A stretch of 63,018 nt of DNA, counting the filler. It is 6 parts of 6 records of this genome, joined end to end, with 100 filler letters (N's around TTAATTAATTAA, not from the genome) between each part and the next. Parts side by side here need not be neighbours in the genome. Positions count along the whole stretch, not along the records: positions 5,332 to 16,613 come from DRR723986_2385; 5 more parts are not named here. The stretch is one strand, 5' to 3'. Shown in pieces: positions 5,232-15,045 of the stretch. The translations under genes were made by a program, and so were the position numbers. The notes under the pieces are model-generated. The model was given only the letters and a program-made list of their open reading frames with translations, was not told the DNA's origin and searched no databases. How positions within the stretch are numbered: position 1 is the first letter of the stretch; each line of letters starts with the position of its first letter.

Positions 5232-5331
5232 NNNNNNNNNNNNNNNNNNNNNNNNNNNNNNNNNNNNNNNNNNNNTTAATTAATTAANNNNNNNNNNNNN
5301 NNNNNNNNNNNNNNNNNNNNNNNNNNNNNNN
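5232..5331. other. Artificial contig-joining spacer
   Basis: 44 N + TTAATTAATTAA + 44 N; genes truncated on both sides. Confidence 0.98.
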
Positions 5332-6552
5332 CCGCCCGCCCGAACCCCAGCGGCCCAAACCACAGCGGTCGAGCCCGCGGCCTCGATCCGGGTGCCGGCC
5401 ACGCGGCTGGATATGCTGATGGATTCCGTGGGCGAATTGGTAACTGTCGAGGCGCGGTTGACAGAACTGGCGCGCCGCAGCCGTGACCCGGCCTTGATGG
5501 CCACCTCAGAAGAGGTCAGCCGCCTGGCCGGGCGCCTGCGCGATGCCACCATGTCGATGCGTATGGTGCCGCTGCGCAGCCTTGTGGCGCGCTTTCGCCG
5601 GCTGATTTTGGGCCTGTCCGATGATCTGGGCAAGCCGGTCGATTTTGTGGTTCTGGGCGAGGATACCGAGCTGGACAAAACCATGATCGAGAAAATGGCC
5701 GATCCCTTGGTGCATATTCTGCGCAATGCCATCGATCATGGGCTGGAGGCCCCCGATGCCCGGCGCGCCACGCAAAAGCCGGCCCGTGGGCGTATTGAAC
5801 TGTCTGCCGAACATGCCGGCGCCGAGGTGCTGGTGCGGGTGCGCGATGATGGCAAAGGCATCAACCCCGAGATCGTGCGCGCCAAAGCCATCGAACGCGG
5901 GCTGATCACCGCCGAGGCGCAGCTGAGCGATGCACAGATTTTCCAGCTGGTGCTCGAGCCGGGGTTTTCCACGGCCGAAACCGTGACCGAACTATCCGGG
6001 CGCGGTGTGGGCATGGATGTGGTGCGCCGCACCATCGACGGGCTGCGCGGCACGATCGATATCGACAGCACGCCGGGGCAGGGCACCACCGTAACCCTGC
6101 GCTTGCCGCTGACATTGGCCATCATCGAGGGGCTGCTCATCGAGGTGGCGGGCGAGCTTTACACCGTGCCCATGGCGGCGGTGAAAGAGATCATCGCCCT
6201 GCCGCGCGAAAAAGAGCAGTTTTCCCAAAGCGCCGATTATCTGGATATCCGCGGCCAATTCGTGCCTTTCGTCCGCCTGCGCCACCTGTTTGGCTGCGAT
6301 GGGGCCAGCCCCATCAGCCAAAATGTGGTGGTTGTGGAAAACGCCGATACCCGCATGGGCGTGGTGGTGGATCGCATCATTGGCACCAACCAGACCGTGA
6401 TCAAACAAATATCGAAATTGCAGGCAGGCGCGCGCGAAATTTCCGGCGCCACGATTTTGGGCGATGGCTCGGTCTCGTTGATCATCGACGTGCCGCAGCT
6501 GGTGGCCAGCGTCAGCCGCAGCCTGCCCCAGCGCAAAGAGGCCGCCGCATGA
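5332..6552 (+). CDS. cheA: Chemotaxis histidine kinase CheA (P3-P4-P5 domains), 5'-truncated
   Basis: SIRVPATRLD, HILRNAIDHGLE, DDGKGI, PGFSTA..SGRGVGMDVV, ISGATILGDG. Confidence 0.96.
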   Translation, partial: PPARTPAAQTTAVEPAASIRVPATRLDMLMDSVGELVTVEARLTELARRSRDPALMATSEEVSRLAGRLRDATMSMRMVPLRSLVARFRRLILGLSDDLGKPVDFVVLGEDTELDKTMIEKMADPLVHILRNAIDHGLEAPDARRATQKPARGRIELSAEHAGAEVLVRVRDDGKGINPEIVRAKAIERGLITAEAQLSDAQIFQLVLEPGFSTAETVTELSGRGVGMDVVRRTIDGLRGTIDIDSTPGQGTTVTLRLPLTLAIIEGLLIEVAGELYTVPMAAVKEIIALPREKEQFSQSADYLDIRGQFVPFVRLRHLFGCDGASPISQNVVVVENADTRMGVVVDRIIGTNQTVIKQISKLQAGAREISGATILGDGSVSLIIDVPQLVASVSRSLPQRKEAAA

Positions 6553-7043
6553 GCACCCCATCGCCCGAGCTGCACGAACACAGCACGCTGACTGCGTTAA
6601 CCTTTACCATTGGCAGTGTGCGCCTGGCCGTGCCTGCCTCGGACCTGCAAGAAATCATGGATCCGCTGCCCATCACCCGGGTGCCGGGCGCCAGCAGCTT
6701 TGCGCCCGCGGTGCTGAATGTGCGCGGGGGCGTGCTGCCATTGGCCGATTTGCGCATTCCGCTGGGCATCGCCCCCACGGGCCCCACCCAGCCCGAAAGC
6801 GTCCGCTTTCTGGTGCTAGAGGTGGGCATGGGCGCCGAACCTGCCACGGTGGTGATCACCGCCGATATGGTGCACGAGGTGATGAGCATTCCAATGGCGC
6901 AGATCGTGCCGTTGCCTGCCACCTCGGGTTGGCCCCCTGAATTTATGCGCGGCATTTTCCGCATCGCTGATGAAAGCTTTGTGCTGCTGCCCGACCTTTC
7001 CGCAATTTTTACCACCATGGCGCAGCGCGCCGTGCATGCCTGA
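6549..7043 (+). CDS. cheW: Chemotaxis scaffold CheW
   Basis: [26 protein letters not shown] overlap with cheA. Confidence 0.88.
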
Positions 7044-7060: not shown

Positions 7061-8773
7061 ATGCGTTTGACCATCAAAACCAAACTGGCCCTGACCTTTT
7101 TGTCGATTTTTATTCTCTGCGGTGCGGCCATCTTTTTGGCTGTGCGCGGGTTGGATAATACCGGCAAAGCCTTTGGCAAAACTGTCGAGGTGGATGTGCC
7201 CGAATTGCACCTGATCAACAATTTGATCGAGCGTAAAATGCGTGTGCGCACCACTGTGGCGGAATTGCTGATTACCCTGCCAGATGCCCCCGCCGACCAT
7301 ATCGCCAAATTGCAACAGCGCCTGACGGGGCTGGTTGGGCAGGTAGACGAGGGCATAGCCCTGCTGCGCCCCTATGTCAAAGGCGAGGTGGCAACCCTGC
7401 TTGATGAATTCGTGCGCCTGCATGAAATCGCAGCACCCATGGCGCTTGGGATTGTTGGGCAAAAATTAAACGGCAACGAAGATGCCGCCGCGCGCGCCTT
7501 TCATACCGATCACCTGCAGGTCAGCGAAGACATCTACAGCAACCTCGATCAGATGAAAGCCACGATCGAAAATGATCTTTCCGCGCGTTTGAGCGAAACA
7601 CAGGAAACAATCGCCAGTTCGCGAATGAATTTGCTGCTGCTGTCGGCGGTGGCGCTGCTGGTGGGTTTGATTTCTACCGTCATCATCGTGCGCAGCCTGT
7701 CGGTGCGCTTGTCGGCGCTGGTGCGTGTGACCACCGATGTGGCGGGCGGCGATTTGCGCGCCAATATTCAGGCCGATAGCAGCGATGAGATCGGCGAATT
7801 GCAAGGCGCGTTGCGCGATATGGTGCAGCGCCTGCGTGCGATGGTCACAGATGTGAATGCCTCGGTGCGCAGCGTGAATGCGGGGGCGGGCCAAATGGCG
7901 CAGACCTCGGAAGAGCTGTCACAGGGGGCCACCGAACAGGCCTCATCGACCGAAGAGGCCTCGGCCGCGGTGGAACAGATGGCCGCCAATATCAAGCAAA
8001 GCGCCGATAACGCAGCGGTTACAGAAGAAATGGCTACCAAATCAGCCACCGATGCCCGCGCCAGCGGCAAGGCGGTGAACGAGGCCGTGGCTGCCATGCA
8101 AACCATTGCCGAGCGCATTATGATCGTGCAGGAAATCGCGCGCCAAACCGATTTGCTGGCGCTGAACGCGGCGGTCGAGGCGGCCCGCGCAGGCGAACAT
8201 GGCCGCGGCTTTGCCGTGGTGGCCGCCGAAGTGCGCAAACTGGCCGAGCGCAGCCAAACTGCGGCGGCTGAAATTTCCGCGCTGTCGGCCAGCACGGTGA
8301 AAACCGCCACCAGCGCAGGCGAAATGCTGGAAGGCTTGGTGCCCGATATCGAACGCACCTCGGCCTTGGTGACAGAAATCAGCGTGGCCTCGCGCGAATT
8401 GGCCACGGGCTCGGCCCAGATCAACCTGTCGATCCAGCAGCTTGACCGCGTGACCCAGGCCAATACTTCGGCCTCGGAAGAGCTGTCGTCCAGCGCCAAT
8501 GAACTGGCCGATCTGTCGCGCGAGCTGTCGCATACGATGGCGTTTTTCAAGCTGGATGGCCAGGCGCCCGCTGAAACCCCCAGCCTGGCCCCCGCAGCGC
8601 CAATGGCAAACCCCTTTGCCAAACCCCGCGCCAAGGCGGGTGCAGCTGCGCCCAAACTGGCCACCTCGGGCGGGCGTGCCAAACCGCGCGATATGGCCGA
8701 TGGCGGGTTTTCCTTCGATCTGGGCGAAGGCGATACGCTGGACCGGCAGTTTGAACGTGCCAATGTGGCCTAA
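7061..8773 (+). CDS. Methyl-accepting chemotaxis protein (TM, periplasmic helical sensor, TM, HAMP, signalling domain)
   Basis: [40 protein letters not shown] hairpin tip; HAMP DEIGEL; two TM segments. Confidence 0.95.
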
Positions 8774-8788
8774 GCCGGGGATTTGCCT

Positions 8789-9289
8789 GTGAACGAGTGT
8801 CACGAAATCGTCTCTTTCACCATCGACCGGGCCACCTATGGTGTTCCGGTCGGCCGGGTGCGGGAAATTCTCGATATCTGTCCGGTCTCGCCGGTGCCGC
8901 GTGCGCCCGATTACGTGATGGGGCTGATTGATGTGCGCGGCGAGAATATCCCGGTGATCGACATGCGCAGCCTGCTGCGCCTGCCTGCCGCCGAAGATAC
9001 GCCGCAAACCCGGTTTTTGGTGGCGCAGATGCACCAGCACGGCAAAGACTGCGTGCTGGGCATCCGCACCGACCGCGTGATCGAGGTGGCGCGTCTGGAT
9101 GACGACACGCTGCGCCCCATGGCCGAGGCCGAATTGCTGGGCTGGAGCGGTGCCGCCGTGGGCGCGATTGGCCGCCGCAACGGTGAAATCATCAGCATTC
9201 TCGATCTGGATAACCTTTTTGCCGAGGTGCCCAATGCCGTTCTGGCGCAGCAGGCCGGGGCGCCAGACGATACCCAAGGGGTGCAATAG
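8789..9289 (+). CDS. cheW: Chemotaxis scaffold CheW (second copy)
   Basis: VREIL..VPRAPDYVMGLIDVRGENIPVIDMR; GTG start with GGGGA RBS. Confidence 0.92.
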   Translation: MNECHEIVSFTIDRATYGVPVGRVREILDICPVSPVPRAPDYVMGLIDVRGENIPVIDMRSLLRLPAAEDTPQTRFLVAQMHQHGKDCVLGIRTDRVIEVARLDDDTLRPMAEAELLGWSGAAVGAIGRRNGEIISILDLDNLFAEVPNAVLAQQAGAPDDTQGVQ

Positions 9290-9292
9290 CCC

Positions 9293-10135
9293 ATGCCACT
9301 TGCCAAAATTGAAGATGCCAATGCCCGGTTTCGTGCCGCGATCCGGGCATTGACGGGCATTGAATTGCCCGCGCAGAAAATACCAATGATCGAACAGCGC
9401 TTGCGCAAACGGGTGATGCATTGGGGCCATAGCAGCACCGAAAGCTATATGGCAGCACTTTTGGCAGGCGAAATGGATCAGGCAGAACTGGCCCTCGTGG
9501 TGGATTTGATGACCACCAACACCACCAGCTTTTTTCGCGAGGCCGAGCATTTTCAAATCTTGCGCGATGATCTGTTGCCACAGCTTTTGCGCCCGGTGCG
9601 CGGCCAGCGCCCCAGGCTGAAACTATGGAGCGCGGCCAGCTCGGAAGGGGCCGAGGCCTATTCGCTGGCCATGGTGCTGGCCGAGGCCAACCGCCAGGGC
9701 AACCGGTTTGACTGGGCGATTTTGGGCACCGATCTTTCGGGTCGGATGATCGAAAAGGCCACATCGGCCATTTATGCGCCCGACCAGCTGACAGGTATTC
9801 CCGTTGATCTGGCGCGGCGCTATTTGATGCATGCATCCAGCGGGCCCATGGCCGGCAAGCTGCGCATCGTGCCCGAATTGCGCGCCCGCGTGCGGTTTCA
9901 CCAGATGAACCTGATGGACGAGAAATACCCCGTAGATCCCGATGTTCACGTGGTTTTTTTGCGCAACATCTTAATTTATTTCGACGCCCCCACCAAAGCC
10001 GCCGTGATCGAACGGGTCACGCGCCATTTGCGCCCCGGTGGCTATTTGTTTGTGGGTCATTCCGAAAGCATGGTGGTGCGCCACCCCGAGTTGGCACAGA
10101 TCGTGCCTACGGTGTTTCAAAAGGTGTCTGAATGA
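9293..10135 (+). CDS. cheR: Chemotaxis methyltransferase CheR
   Basis: TTNTTSFFRE, WSAASSEGAEAYSLAM, FLRNILIYFD, VGHSES. Confidence 0.95.
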   Translation: MPLAKIEDANARFRAAIRALTGIELPAQKIPMIEQRLRKRVMHWGHSSTESYMAALLAGEMDQAELALVVDLMTTNTTSFFREAEHFQILRDDLLPQLLRPVRGQRPRLKLWSAASSEGAEAYSLAMVLAEANRQGNRFDWAILGTDLSGRMIEKATSAIYAPDQLTGIPVDLARRYLMHASSGPMAGKLRIVPELRARVRFHQMNLMDEKYPVDPDVHVVFLRNILIYFDAPTKAAVIERVTRHLRPGGYLFVGHSESMVVRHPELAQIVPTVFQKVSE

Positions 10136-11277
10136 ATAGTAAAGCTGCGCCGCTGCGTGTTTTGGTTGTAGACGATTCCGCCTCGGCGCGGGTGATGCTG
10201 CGCCAGATCATCGAATCCGATCCCGCCCTCGAGGTGCAGGCCTTGGCCGAAGATGCCTTCGCCGCCGCGCGCATTATGGCCAACAGCTTGCCCGATGTGA
10301 TCTTGCTGGATCTTGAAATGCCCAAAATGGATGGCATCACGTTTTTGCGCAAAATCATGGCGCAGCGCCCTTTGCCGGTGGTCATTTGCTCGTCGTTGAA
10401 TGCCGATGGCGCGCGGCGCAGCGTCGAGGCGATGGAGGCGGGCGCCATCGACGTTATCCGCAAGCCCGAAAAAGCAGATCGTGAAAAATTCGAAGAGGCG
10501 CGCGCCACCATTTGTGATGCCTTGATCGCCGCTGCATTAGCTGCGCGCCAGGGGGTGCGGGTTTCGGCCAGGCTGCCTGGGGGCGGGGCAGGGGCGGCAG
10601 CGCCTGTGCCGCTGCGATCCACCCCGCGCCTGTCTGCCGATGAAATCTTGCCCGCCCCCAGCGCCCTGCGGCCACCGCCGCCCACGCAGCCGGTTGTCTG
10701 CATTGGTGCCTCGACCGGCGGCACCGAGGCGCTTAGCCAGATCCTGTGTGATCTACCCCCCGATGCCCCGGCAATCGTGGTGGTGCAGCACATGCCAAAG
10801 GGCTTTACCGCGGCCTTTTCGGCACGGTTAAACGGCCTGGCCCAGATCGAGGTGCTGGAAGCCACCGAGGGGCTGGCGGTGAAACAGGGGCGCTGCATCA
10901 TTGCCGCGGGCGACAGCCATATGTTGCTGCGCCGCAGTGGCACCGCGTATCGGGTCGAGCTATCAAATGGCCCCGCCGTCAGCCGGCACAGGCCATCGGT
11001 TGATGTGTTGTTTCGCAGCGCCGCACAGGCCGCTGGCGCCAATGCCTTGGGCATTTTGCTGACCGGCATGGGCGTGGACGGCGCCCAATGTCTGGGCGAG
11101 ATGATGCGCGCAGGCGCCCATACGATTGCCCAAAACGAAGAAACCTGCGTGGTCTATGGCATGCCGCGCGAGGCGGTGCAGCTGGGCCATGCCCGCCAGG
11201 TGCTGGGCCTGCCCCGCATCAGCGGCGCAATCACCGGATTTGCCCGGCTACATGGCAGCAAAGCCGAGGTGGTATGA
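10132..11277 (+). CDS. cheB: Chemotaxis response regulator protein-glutamate methylesterase CheB
   Basis: Receiver domain (VVDDS, LLDLEMP) plus GASTGG, VQHMP, RPSVDVLF, TGMGVDG. Confidence 0.96.
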   Translation: MNSKAAPLRVLVVDDSASARVMLRQIIESDPALEVQALAEDAFAAARIMANSLPDVILLDLEMPKMDGITFLRKIMAQRPLPVVICSSLNADGARRSVEAMEAGAIDVIRKPEKADREKFEEARATICDALIAAALAARQGVRVSARLPGGGAGAAAPVPLRSTPRLSADEILPAPSALRPPPPTQPVVCIGASTGGTEALSQILCDLPPDAPAIVVVQHMPKGFTAAFSARLNGLAQIEVLEATEGLAVKQGRCIIAAGDSHMLLRRSGTAYRVELSNGPAVSRHRPSVDVLFRSAAQAAGANALGILLTGMGVDGAQCLGEMMRAGAHTIAQNEETCVVYGMPREAVQLGHARQVLGLPRISGAITGFARLHGSKAEVV

Positions 11278-13040
11278 TGCGTGATGGCAGCTTTTTCATC
11301 CCTCAGCCGCAACCCTCTTTGGCTGAAAGCCTGGCATGGATGGGCCAGTTTCGTGCCGCGCTCGAGCAGGTGTTTTCAGAGGCGGGCGACAATCTGGGCC
11401 AGGCCCTGGCCAATTTGGGGGCATTGAGCGGGCAGTTTCGCCAATTGGAAACCACCCTCGGCCCCCAGGCCGAAGCGGCGCTGGTGGGCTTGATCGATGA
11501 GATCACCGCCCATCTGGCCGATCTGCAGGACGATTGCGGCGCTTTTACATCGGTGTCAGATAAGCTGCGCAAATCGGTTGCAGCCATCGCGCAGCAGGTG
11601 CGCGAGCTGGATAATGTGGTGCGCACCATCGCCAATATTTCCATCAATGCGCGCATCCAGGGCAACAGCCTGGTGCCGCCGCGCCCGCAGGTGGTGGCCT
11701 TTATCGAACGGCTGGCGGCGATGTCGCAGGAATCGGAAACGATTTTGGCGGAAATCAACGATGCCATGGCCTCGGTCGGGCTGGATATGGGCGCGATGGC
11801 GGATGGCCAGCGCGATTTGGTGCGCGAATTAACCCAAACCGTCTTTCCCGCGATCGAGGGCTTCACCCGCATGTCGCAGGATATGCACAACAGCCAGGGC
11901 GATATTCAGCAGGCCTCGGCCGAGCTGGCAGGCCAGGCGCAAAAGATCGAGGCGCAGGTGGGGCAGCTGATTGTGGCGCTGCAAATCGGCGATTCCACGC
12001 GCCAGCGTCTGGAACGGGCCGAAGACACGCTGGGCCAGGCCATGGCGCAAGAAGACACCGGGGTGAAACCGCTGGCGCATCTGGCACTGGCGCTTGAACA
12101 GGGGGCGCTGGGCGCCGCCGAGGGCCAGCTGACGCAGGCCCTGGATGCGTTGCGCGCCTTGGGCCAGCACGCCCGCGCGGTGCTGTCTGGCCCGGCCACA
12201 GCTGCGATCACCGGCAATGCATTCCTGGCCCAAACCGCCCCCCACAACGCCCGCCAACGGCTGGCCAAAAGCCTGCAGGTGAACGACCAGCGCTTTGCCG
12301 CGCTCAAAACGCGGGCGGGTGCGGTGCAAGAGCGGCTTGGCGTGATCTTGCGCCACGAGGCCACGCTGCGCCGCATCGCGCAGGAAATTCGCCTGTCTGG
12401 GGTGAATGCGGTGATCATCTGCGCGAAACTGGGCGAAGATGGCCGGGCCTTGCGCGAATTGGCCCATTGGCTGCGCGATCTGACCGATGCCAGCGATGCG
12501 ATCATCGCGCATTTGCAGGGCATTCTAGCGCAGGCGCGCGACAGCCTGCATCAGCTGACCGAGGCGCGCATTGGCCGGCTCGAGCAGCTGTTGCAGATCT
12601 TTGCGCAGGCCTCGGAAAATCTGGACCACTTGTTGCAAGGGGCCGCCGCCGATGTGGGCAAAACCGCCAAAGAATTTGCCCATAGCGCGGTGGTATTGCC
12701 GCAGCATTTGTCTAATGCCACCGATTTGCTGGACGGGTTGCAGGCCCAAATCGCCCAGAGGCGCCCCGCCCAGGCGCAGCTGGAACAGGGCCTGGCGCTG
12801 ATGCCCCAGCCCCTGCCCGAAACGCTGGGCGCCGCCCCGCTTGGCCCGGTTTTGCAGCAGCTTTATGCGCTTTATACCATGCAGGCTGAACGCCAGATTC
12901 ACAGCCAGGTCATTGATGGCTATACCCAGCCTGTGCCCGATGCCCCCCAACCTGCCCCCCAACCTGCGCGCAAGGCGGTGCCAGCCCCGCCGCCTGAGCC
13001 CACCGGGGAAAATGACGATCTGGAAGATATTTTCTTTTAA
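11274..13040 (+). CDS. Uncharacterised soluble coiled-coil chemotaxis protein (degenerate MCP-like, CheZ-like motifs), 588 aa
   Basis: ATGA overlap with cheB; no TM; two degenerate MCP-tip motifs, GDSTRQ motif, Pro-rich linker and DDLEDIFF tail. Confidence 0.75.
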   Translation: MMRDGSFFIPQPQPSLAESLAWMGQFRAALEQVFSEAGDNLGQALANLGALSGQFRQLETTLGPQAEAALVGLIDEITAHLADLQDDCGAFTSVSDKLRKSVAAIAQQVRELDNVVRTIANISINARIQGNSLVPPRPQVVAFIERLAAMSQESETILAEINDAMASVGLDMGAMADGQRDLVRELTQTVFPAIEGFTRMSQDMHNSQGDIQQASAELAGQAQKIEAQVGQLIVALQIGDSTRQRLERAEDTLGQAMAQEDTGVKPLAHLALALEQGALGAAEGQLTQALDALRALGQHARAVLSGPATAAITGNAFLAQTAPHNARQRLAKSLQVNDQRFAALKTRAGAVQERLGVILRHEATLRRIAQEIRLSGVNAVIICAKLGEDGRALRELAHWLRDLTDASDAIIAHLQGILAQARDSLHQLTEARIGRLEQLLQIFAQASENLDHLLQGAAADVGKTAKEFAHSAVVLPQHLSNATDLLDGLQAQIAQRRPAQAQLEQGLALMPQPLPETLGAAPLGPVLQQLYALYTMQAERQIHSQVIDGYTQPVPDAPQPAPQPARKAVPAPPPEPTGENDDLEDIFF

Positions 13041-13067: not shown

Positions 13068-13100
13068 GGGGCAGGGCAGGTTTTTCTGCCTTGCCCCTTT
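13068..13100 (+). terminator. Probable Rho-independent terminator of the che operon
   Basis: GGGGCAGGGCAG / CTGCCTTGCCCC stem (one G-U pair) followed by TTT. Confidence 0.6.
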
Positions 13101-13147: not shown

Positions 13148-14578
13148 ATGACCGATAAGCGCCCACAGGGGCTAGACCCTGCCAGCCCCGATGCCTTTCG
13201 TCAGGCGGCGCATCAGGTGTTGGACGCCTGTCTTGACCAGCTGTTTGCGGCAGCCCAGCACCCCTGGCAGCCCGTGCCTGCCGATGTGGTGGCGCGCTAT
13301 CAAATCACCGGCGCATCGATCGGGGAACAGGCGCTGGCCGCGCGATTGGTGCAAGATGTCTTGCCCTATGGCACCGGCAACACCCACCCGCGGTTTTTTG
13401 GCTGGGTGCATGGCACCGGGCTGGCTGTGGGGCTGATGTCGGAATTGGTGGCAGCCACCATGAATGCCAATGTCGGCGGCCGCGATCATGGGGCGGTTTA
13501 CACCGAACGCGCGGTGATCGATTGGGCGCGCGGTGTTTTTGGCTTTCCGCAAGGGGCCAGCGGCGTGCTGGTCAGTGGCACCAGCCAGGCCACGGTGATT
13601 GCGCTAGCGGCGGCGCGGGTGCGCGCCTTGGGGGCGGATGTGCGCAAAACCGGGCAGGGCGGGCGGCGCCTGGTCGCCTATGCCGGGGCAGGGGTGCATA
13701 ATGCCACCAAAAAGGCGATCGAGCTGTTGGGCATTGGCGCGGATAATCTGCGCGCCATTCCCGAAACCGATCAGGGCATGGATCTGGCCGCGCTCGCGGC
13801 GGCTGTGGCGGCAGATCGTGCGGCGGGGGCTGTGCCATTTGCCGTGGTGGGCACCGCAGGTTCGGTTGATCTGGGGCGCTTTGATGATTTGAACCGCCTG
13901 GCTGATCTGGCGGCAAAACATGGGCTTTGGCTGCATGTGGATGGGGCATTTGGGGCCTGGGCGCGGCTGGCTGGCGCCCCGTGGGATGGGCTGGTGGCGG
14001 GGATCGAGCGCGCCGATAGCCTGGCCTGTGATTTTCACAAATGGATGTATGTGCCCTATGATTGCGGCATGGTTTTGCTGCGCAACGAGGACGAACACCG
14101 CGCCGCTTTCGCCGCGCGCCCCTCGTATCTGCAGGGCCAAGACCGGGGTTTGGCCGGGGGCGACCCGTGGTTTTGCGACTATGGCATTGATCTGTCGCGG
14201 GGCAACCGCGGCCTAAAGGTATGGGCGGCGCTGATGGCCTATGGGCCCGATCGTTTGGGCGCAGCCATCGCTGACAATTGCGAGCGTGCCGCGCAAATGG
14301 GGCAGTTGGTGCAGGCCAGCCCGCATATGGCGCTGATGGCGCCGGTGGTGTCGAACCTGTGCGTATTTACCGCCGATACCCGCCTGCCACCGGCCGAACA
14401 AAGCGCGCTGAACACAAAGATCGCCCAAGATCTGCAATTGGCAGGCGAGGCAGTATTTTCTACCGTTACGCTGAACGGCATCACCGCCTTGCGCGCAGCG
14501 ATCACCAACCATCGCACCCGGCCAGAGGATATTACCCTGGCCATCGCCGCTGTCGAACGCGCGCGCGCGGGCGGCTAG
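13148..14578 (+). CDS. Group II PLP-dependent amino-acid decarboxylase (aromatic/glutamate decarboxylase family)
   Basis: HPRFFGWV, WLHVDGAFG, DFHKW (PLP lysine), LRAAITNHRT. Confidence 0.88.
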   Translation: MTDKRPQGLDPASPDAFRQAAHQVLDACLDQLFAAAQHPWQPVPADVVARYQITGASIGEQALAARLVQDVLPYGTGNTHPRFFGWVHGTGLAVGLMSELVAATMNANVGGRDHGAVYTERAVIDWARGVFGFPQGASGVLVSGTSQATVIALAAARVRALGADVRKTGQGGRRLVAYAGAGVHNATKKAIELLGIGADNLRAIPETDQGMDLAALAAAVAADRAAGAVPFAVVGTAGSVDLGRFDDLNRLADLAAKHGLWLHVDGAFGAWARLAGAPWDGLVAGIERADSLACDFHKWMYVPYDCGMVLLRNEDEHRAAFAARPSYLQGQDRGLAGGDPWFCDYGIDLSRGNRGLKVWAALMAYGPDRLGAAIADNCERAAQMGQLVQASPHMALMAPVVSNLCVFTADTRLPPAEQSALNTKIAQDLQLAGEAVFSTVTLNGITALRAAITNHRTRPEDITLAIAAVERARAGG

Positions 14579-15045
14579 ACGCTGGCCTCTTTGACAGATT
14601 GCATGGAAACATGGGTCGAGGTCGAGGCGACATAGGGCAGGGCCGATATCACCTCGCCCAGCACCTGGCGATAGCTTTGGATATCGCGGGTGCGCACCTT
14701 GATCAGGTAGTCGAAACTGCCCGCGATCATATGGCATTGCTCGATTTCGGGCACTTTCAGCACCGCATTGTTAAAGGCTGACAGCGCTTTTTCTGTGGTT
14801 TCGCTCAGCTTGACCTCGGCAAAGGCCACATGTTCCAGCCCCAGTTTCTGCGGGTTCAACACGGCGCGAAACCCGGCGATATAGCCCTGATCCTGCAGGC
14901 GCTTTACACGCACCTGCGCGGGGCTTTTCGACAGGCCCACACGGCGCGCCAGATCGGCGATCGACATGCGCCCGTCCATCGACAATTCGCGCAGAATCTT
15001 TTGGTCGATCCGGTCTAATTCATCGGGGGTTGCGCCAAAGATCAT
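14575..15045 (-). CDS. putR: Lrp/AsnC-family regulator, divergent from putA (PutR)
   Basis: LDRIDQKIL..GRMSIADLARRVGLSKSP HTH; CHMIAGSFDYL; position opposite putA. Confidence 0.85.
   Translation of the reverse strand: MIFGATPDELDRIDQKILRELSMDGRMSIADLARRVGLSKSPAQVRVKRLQDQGYIAGFRAVLNPQKLGLEHVAFAEVKLSETTEKALSAFNNAVLKVPEIEQCHMIAGSFDYLIKVRTRDIQSYRQVLGEVISALPYVASTSTHVSMQSVKEASV

Follow-up and report, generated by a model that had tools for sequence, protein, structure and literature searches.

In the phosphatase CheZ, the Gln of a DxxxQ motif positions the attacking water and the Asp contacts CheY. TlpC of Rhodobacter (Cereibacter) sphaeroides is a 580-amino-acid (aa) protein encoded in CheOp2 that lacks transmembrane, HAMP, and methylation regions (PMC3964821). 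The published passages on TlpC describe it as an atypical cytoplasmic chemoreceptor with a cluster-organizing role and never as a phosphatase (PMC6829392, PMC3964821, PMC10924463). We analyzed a stretch of DNA of 63,018 nucleotides (the window) in which a che operon closes with an open reading frame (ORF) for a 588-aa protein (11274..13040; this and all window features below are on the + strand unless noted). We found that this protein is a TlpC ortholog made of a duplicated receptor hairpin that carries a CheZ-like motif. Judged from its sequence, it is probably an array-docking, CheZ-type phosphatase of phosphorylated CheY (CheY-P) with one retained active site, and it would serve the CheY of its own chemosensory system.

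We built a family profile from 75 close homologs, and it matched 4,298 representatives at E values up to 0.001 (246 at 1e-30). One match carried the name "transducer, TlpC" and led us to TlpC of strains WS8N and 2.4.1 (ABA77732.1 in the latter). The window protein is 29% identical to WS8N TlpC (EGJ23084.1) over 565 columns (E value, 2e-50) and 30% identical to a protein of R. sphaeroides ATCC 17025 (E value, 3e-52). WS8N TlpC retains ALQAGDSARQR, YTVPEEREIH, and DLADIFF, and it keeps the residues that we found to be invariant in the family. Like the window protein, TlpC is encoded by the last gene, after cheB: the gene order at the Cereibacter loci L003, L005, and L006 is cheY-cheA-cheW-cheW-cheR-cheB-tlpC, and the tlpC homolog has cheB as its immediate upstream neighbor in 50 of 55 loci, with 3 of the remaining 5 reaching a contig edge. 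Because the homology is full length and the place after cheB is shared, we concluded that the window protein is a TlpC ortholog and that the protein itself is already known. An earlier sequence-only reading of this DNA had called it a poorly described component and missed this orthology to a named and studied protein. What looks new is the anatomy, a duplicated receptor hairpin with a CheZ-like motif; excerpts of the open full-text literature hold no statement of a CheZ motif or of phosphatase action for TlpC or for the McpA-like receptors discussed below, and an earlier notice is possible. The window operon, unlike the R. sphaeroides TlpC operon, has an mcp gene between two cheW genes. The nearest genome (G001, 99% complete), whose ortholog is 96% identical to the window protein, has no second or third che system, unlike R. 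sphaeroides, and therefore no CheA3/CheW4 cluster for TlpC to join.

Two loci differ in arrangement. On an Agrobacterium plasmid (L001, 11359-13089, +), the homolog is on the opposite strand and a ParA-family gene lies between it and cheB. In Cereibacter azotoformans, a different che cluster carries a second TlpC-like gene (L045, 9818-11650, +), which is flanked by two mcp genes. The product of this second gene retains LQIGDTTRQR, YTMAAER, and an acidic tail, including the invariant family residues; from the cheOp1 gene order, it is probably TlpS.

The AlphaFold model of the window protein (predicted local distance difference test score, or pLDDT, of 90) has two long hairpins, followed after repeat 2 by a short helix pair with YTMxxERxxH, a linker, and a tail. 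Repeat 1 (residues 16 to 258; 11319..12047) comprises, by the model helices, an N-terminal helix, a receptor-like hairpin, degenerate tip 1, and a DxxxQ helix at its end. The N-terminal helix bears the conserved residues E31-x-x-F34-x-x-x-G38-x-x-L41 (11364..11396), which by hairpin register should lie beside the DxxxQ helix. Tip 1 (N125-A-R ... F143; 11625..11702) was placed by alignment and by the half-versus-half profile match, and it includes TIANISINARIQG (residues 118 to 130; 11625-11663). The predicted CheZ-like catalytic helix is ALQIGDSTRQRLE (11976..12014; D240 codon, 11991-11993; Q244 codon, 12003-12005). Profile comparisons show that repeat 2 (residues 261 to 508; 12054..12797) is the better-kept methyl-accepting chemotaxis protein (MCP) hairpin. 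Its tip, QEIRLSG...WLRDL (residues 370 to 403; 12381..12482), has R373, N378, C383, G387, G390, and R401 conserved in the alignment and is the likely docking surface for CheW or the P5 domain of CheA. The YTMQAERQIH helix (12873..12902) is the proposed second half of the active site. The chain ends in a Pro-rich flexible linker (12927..13007; pLDDT, 51 to 67, no secondary structure) and an acidic-hydrophobic peptide, ENDDLEDIFF (13008..13037), which resembles the tails of CheZ. Every motif named in the sequence-only reading was found at its position.

Compared with each other, the two halves of the family alignment matched across 223 columns, and their tips fell in register (probability, 95.6%; E value, 1.2e-8). 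By this alignment, the two tips, which had been read simply as degenerate MCP tips, are real paralogous repeats. The receptor descent of the family is solid because its profile matches the Thermotoga maritima MCP structure 2ch7 at an E value of 2e-21. Single-chain four-helix bundles that resembled the model structurally did so across both repeats (model range, approximately 83 to 444). Because the halves align and the bundle matches span both hairpins, these data support the covalent pseudodimer that had been proposed, in which two receptor-derived hairpins in one chain would form a long four-helix bundle. Pfam MCPsignal gave no match in the window protein, and among relatives it matched 0 of 25 above the cutoff and 16 of 25 below it. 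Pfam and NCBIfam scans of the window protein returned coiled-coil noise alone (DUF948, MCE) and no sensory or HAMP domain. By eye, without a transmembrane predictor, we saw no transmembrane or hydrophobic run in it, in line with the earlier view of a soluble protein.

We aligned 142 homologs, 34 near and 108 far (approximately 20% identity), taken from the best 150 of the 4,298 matches once 2 close copies had been removed along with 6 fragments shorter than 500 aa. Q237, D240, Q244, N378, and E539 were invariant (142/142), and R540 (141), R245 (140), G239 (138), R243 (138), H543 (135), and Y534 (133) were nearly so. Because they are conserved across these homologs, the motifs of the window protein are more than chance. 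Both receptor tips drift while Q237, D240, Q244, and E539 stay invariant, and these invariant residues sit at the opposite end of the bundle, approximately 100 residues away from the tips. In sequence terms, invariance amid drifting tips is a pattern typical of catalytic residues. The acidic-hydrophobic tail was present, by eye, in about 130 of 143 C termini (13 end otherwise). In addition, 134 of 142 homologs have the cysteine C383 (12420-12422), adjacent to tip 2, at a position that is Ala in canonical MCPs; a redox or packing role is possible.

The repeats have not kept their motifs equally. The positions in repeat 2 equivalent to those of DxxxQ are Q490 and A494, which are not conserved, and in the far set conservation stays below 80% at every position between 418 and 534. 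Because one DxxxQ helix and one YTM helix survive, in different halves, we infer a single composite site, and this would explain why one copy of each motif was left after duplication.

We next compared the family with CheZ, in which D143 and Q147 were invariant in 28 sequences and form the known phosphatase motif, with AxxFQ directly before the Asp (PMC7750401). When the 588-column family profile was aligned locally with the CheZ profile, the best alignment placed D240 and Q244 on D143 and Q147, and the family consensus residues A235, T242, L246, and V249 match the conserved CheZ residues A138, T145, I149, and V152. CheZ (Escherichia coli, 1KMI; Azorhizobium caulinodans), like the window protein, has its DxxxQ in one long helix of a bundle of four and ends in a flexible linker and an acidic-hydrophobic peptide. 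In contrast, CheZ is a 214-aa homodimer with FQD, whereas the window protein is a 588-aa single-chain pseudodimer with QIGD, receptor-type tips, and the extra YTMxxERxxH helix. The window protein belongs by sequence to the TlpC family and lies outside the CheZ family as Pfam defines it; our claim is one of CheZ-like working. CheT, which to our knowledge has no receptor hairpins, is likened to the window protein here by description and not by sequence. The published account of Sinorhizobium meliloti CheT makes it a precedent, a DXXXQ phosphatase without clear sequence homology to CheZ whose gene likewise closes a che operon in an alphaproteobacterium (PMC12654446).

Pattern searches turned up relatives that bridge the window protein and CheZ. 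A DNA pattern for YTMxxERxxH was present in 45 of 301 genomes, compared to 1 of 301 for the reversed control. Thirty of these loci comprised 10 TlpC-like proteins, 1 single-hairpin receptor (402 aa, with FQFQDRVSQR), 12 orphan proteins, and 7 unrelated proteins. The orphans (L121 to L123 and L132 to L140) are full-length relatives of 570 to 600 aa with a conserved Q-Y/F-D-D-I-x-x-Q-R and DIELF tails; their receptor tips are unrecognizable, and they are mostly outside che operons. Their alignment scores 99.1% with TlpC and 18% with CheZ. Cluster members of one orphan, L122, are annotated as Magnetococcales proteins. A second pattern, QFQDxxxQ, was present in 10 of 201 genomes, compared to 0 for the control. 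We inspected 10 of its 11 loci, the eleventh being the 402-aa receptor already found by the YTM pattern, and found nine single-hairpin MCPs and one module-only protein of 175 aa. A Y-x-x-x-x-E/Q helix and an acidic tail, both outside the search pattern, were present in all 10. The 175-aa protein (L152, 8171-8698, +; G633:C26) has an LQFQDATRQ helix, a YTTSKER helix, and an acidic tail; its gene is the X of a cheW-cheA-cheR-cheB-X-cheY-cheD cluster, flanked by cheB and cheY. Modeled alone, it folded poorly (pLDDT, 49), and a fold search on it was uninformative.

The single-hairpin proteins resemble the McpA/CttP-like receptors of class F7 (PA0180, VCA1088), which are encoded beside cheB or before cheY-cheA in clusters described without cheZ, have a conserved C terminus that is not a pentapeptide, and join an array other than their own (PMC7184735). 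That study calls this C terminus important, with an unclear role. From architecture and gene order (L124, L155), and not from the PA0180 sequence, we infer that they are PA0180 orthologs. McpA-architecture proteins, like the TlpC family, have the module of DxxxQ, Y-x-x-x-x-E/Q, and tail. Unlike the window protein, they have one hairpin, whose tip is canonical, and a hydrophobic segment at the N terminus, and because there is a single hairpin per chain, they are presumably homodimers. They align with the TlpC family at 99.4%. In support of a link to CheZ, their C-terminal module matches the CheZ profile at 82.8% (E value, 9e-6), and among 177,635 PDB sequences compared with that module, E. coli CheZ (1kmi_Z) came sixth (E value, 0.21). 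The sequence-only reading had missed that this module is common to McpA-like receptors.

We then considered whether such a system would need a phosphatase. The sequence-only reading had seen no cheZ, cheX, or cheC in an operon whose 5' part was missing. In G001 that 5' end is a STAS gene followed by a 121-aa cheY, and none of the three genes is there. We found no CheZ, CheX, or CheC match in G001 as a whole (CheT-like proteins were not searched for), and E. coli CheZ gave no match in the 55 loci by BLAST, a search of low sensitivity. G001 has three CheW-type domains, all within the che operon and thus one che system, and one CheA-type P5 domain. The 115-aa STAS-domain gene (L059, 7639-7986, +) opens the G001 operon before cheY in a CheS-like position and could be a second termination route. 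A class-wide genome search, in which at most 5 candidates were scored per genome, gave at least 6 of 251 and was not used for co-occurrence. In R. sphaeroides, CheY3-P and CheY4-P are reported to have half-lives of 36 and 38 s and no known phosphatase (PMC2924250).

From the computed duplication, conservation, CheZ register, and gene context, docking, substrate, and catalysis may be pictured as follows. The hairpin tips would attach the protein to CheW or CheA-P5 within an array, and the flexible acidic-hydrophobic tail would capture CheY-P. Q244 would position the attacking water and D240 would contact CheY, as in CheZ, and E539, R540, and H543, together with the DxxxQ helix from the other repeat, would make up a single composite site. 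The structural part of the sequence-only reading is supported, and phosphatase function is plausible, given the conservation, the CheZ register, the relatives that bridge to CheZ, and the absence of matches to other phosphatases. We propose more tentatively, as a possibility that we would not yet bet on, that TlpC, the Cereibacter paralog, the McpA/CttP-like F7 receptors, the module-only proteins, and the orphans are one unrecognized superfamily of receptor-hairpin CheZ-type phosphatases. Brought to arrays by their receptor tips, such proteins would be the signal terminators that F8 and early F7 systems lack, and they would suggest that the CheZ hairpin and the chemoreceptor signaling hairpin have a common origin.

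Several results weigh against a phosphatase. The match of the family profile to CheZ was weak (probability, 1.3%; E value, 0.039). CheZ Q142 (28/28) is replaced by Gly in 138 of 142 homologs, with the Ala kept; the McpA-like relatives have FQD. Pfam PF04344 (CheZ) gave no match in the window protein, and its matches in two sets of relatives (4 of 10 and 2 of 13) were all under the cutoff and no stronger than the coiled-coil noise that unrelated ORFs gave. No counterpart of YTMxxERxxH was demonstrated in CheZ. We also tried the N-terminal T-E-x-x-F helix as CheZ helix 1 and rejected it, as there was no profile match. The match of the McpA-like module to CheZ is partly circular because 7 of the 8 sequences in the module alignment were picked by the QFQDxxxQ motif. 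Beside its complete che operon, G001 has FliG and no Pfam FliM or flagellin match, and therefore the output may not be a working flagellum; its flagellar system may be divergent, decaying, or unassembled. In addition, published modeling with a CheY6 sink and no extra phosphatase gave half-times under about 7 s (PMC2924250). When the model was compared with known folds, the matches were designed four-helix bundles, TTYH channels, and helical toxin folds, with Z values of the size that helical bundles commonly give. CheZ was absent from this list, which generic helical bundles dominate, and the result is neither for nor against a CheZ fold.

The reported cell biology of TlpC also runs counter to an enzyme serving its own operon's CheY. 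TlpC localizes to the cytoplasmic CheOp3 cluster and not to the polar array of its own operon, it binds CheW4, CheA3, and itself in two-hybrid assays, and a tlpC deletion makes the cytoplasmic cluster diffuse, which is a structural phenotype (PMC6829392). These observations favor a structural or docking component, a pseudodimeric receptor mimic that caps, cross-links, or compacts arrays through its tips while its conserved polar residues and tail bind a receiver or another partner without catalysis. Tip 2 retains MCP character, and invariance fits a binding site no less than it fits an active site. In contrast, the invariant residues lie at the far bundle end from the tips, the module survives without hairpins in the 175-aa protein and with unrecognizable tips in the orphans, and F7 arrays form without the McpA-like receptors, which are reported to be dispensable for them (PMC7184735). 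We therefore regard a purely structural role as rather unlikely, if serious.

It is much less probable that the protein is an adaptation helper whose tail tethers CheR or CheB and whose conserved Gln and Glu residues are modification sites or regulate CheB. Its gene directly follows cheB at most loci, and CheT, a DXXXQ protein, is reported to bind CheR too (PMC12654446). However, the CheR/CheB pentapeptide x-[HFYW]-x-x-[HFYW] was found by eye in 0 of 143 C termini, by which we rejected the tail as a CheR pentapeptide, and P. aeruginosa McpA tails are reported to bind no CheR (PMC7184735). We give slightly less credence still, and very little, to a true cytoplasmic sensor or regulator that controls the kinase or phosphatase domain of CheA via the tips, as proposed for R. 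sphaeroides. Published models do put TlpC upstream of CheA3 or CheA4 (PMC6829392, PMC10924463). Against this, there is no sensory, HAMP, or methylation region by Pfam or in the description of TlpC (PMC3964821), the conserved residues are away from the signaling tip, and G001 encodes TlpC but a single CheA-type P5 domain and therefore no CheA3/CheA4 pair. We continue to favor the array-docking phosphatase.

The window holds the following genes around the tlpC ortholog. By Pfam, the operon comprises the 3' part of cheA (H-kinase_dim, HATPase_c, and CheW domains; 5392..6552), cheW (6549..7043), a canonical membrane MCP with HAMP and MCPsignal (7061..8773), a second cheW (8783..9289), cheR (9293..10135), and cheB (10132..11277), giving the order cheA-cheW-mcp-cheW-cheR-cheB-tlpC. 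Runs of N interrupt the window near 5300-5390, 16640, and 17430, and the first takes out cheY and the 5' part of cheA. The ATG of the tlpC ortholog at 11274 shares ATGA with the cheB stop. A longer, 650-aa ORF from 11088 was ruled out because it overlaps cheB and full-length homologs are mostly approximately 550 to 610 aa. Judged by gene order with the extra cheW (PMC8429497), the operon probably belongs to class F8. A terminator-like hairpin lies 3' of the tlpC ortholog (13068..13097; 2 overlapping sites, compared to a shuffle mean of 0.5). The neighborhood beyond is ordinary: a pyridoxal-dependent decarboxylase gene (Pfam; 13148-14578, +) and, read by eye, an Lrp-type regulator gene (14575-15045, −) and a divergent putA-like gene (15138 onward, +).

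Work on TlpC since 2002 has given it no biochemical function, and R. sphaeroides has been described without CheZ and without a phosphatase for CheY3-P or CheY4-P. The CheZ-motif match suggests a testable job for TlpC and its relatives. If this is true, many "chemoreceptors" and hypothetical proteins in rhizobia, sphingomonads, Rhodobacteraceae, and gammaproteobacteria would be signal terminators, and the published models of R. sphaeroides signaling would miss one reaction.

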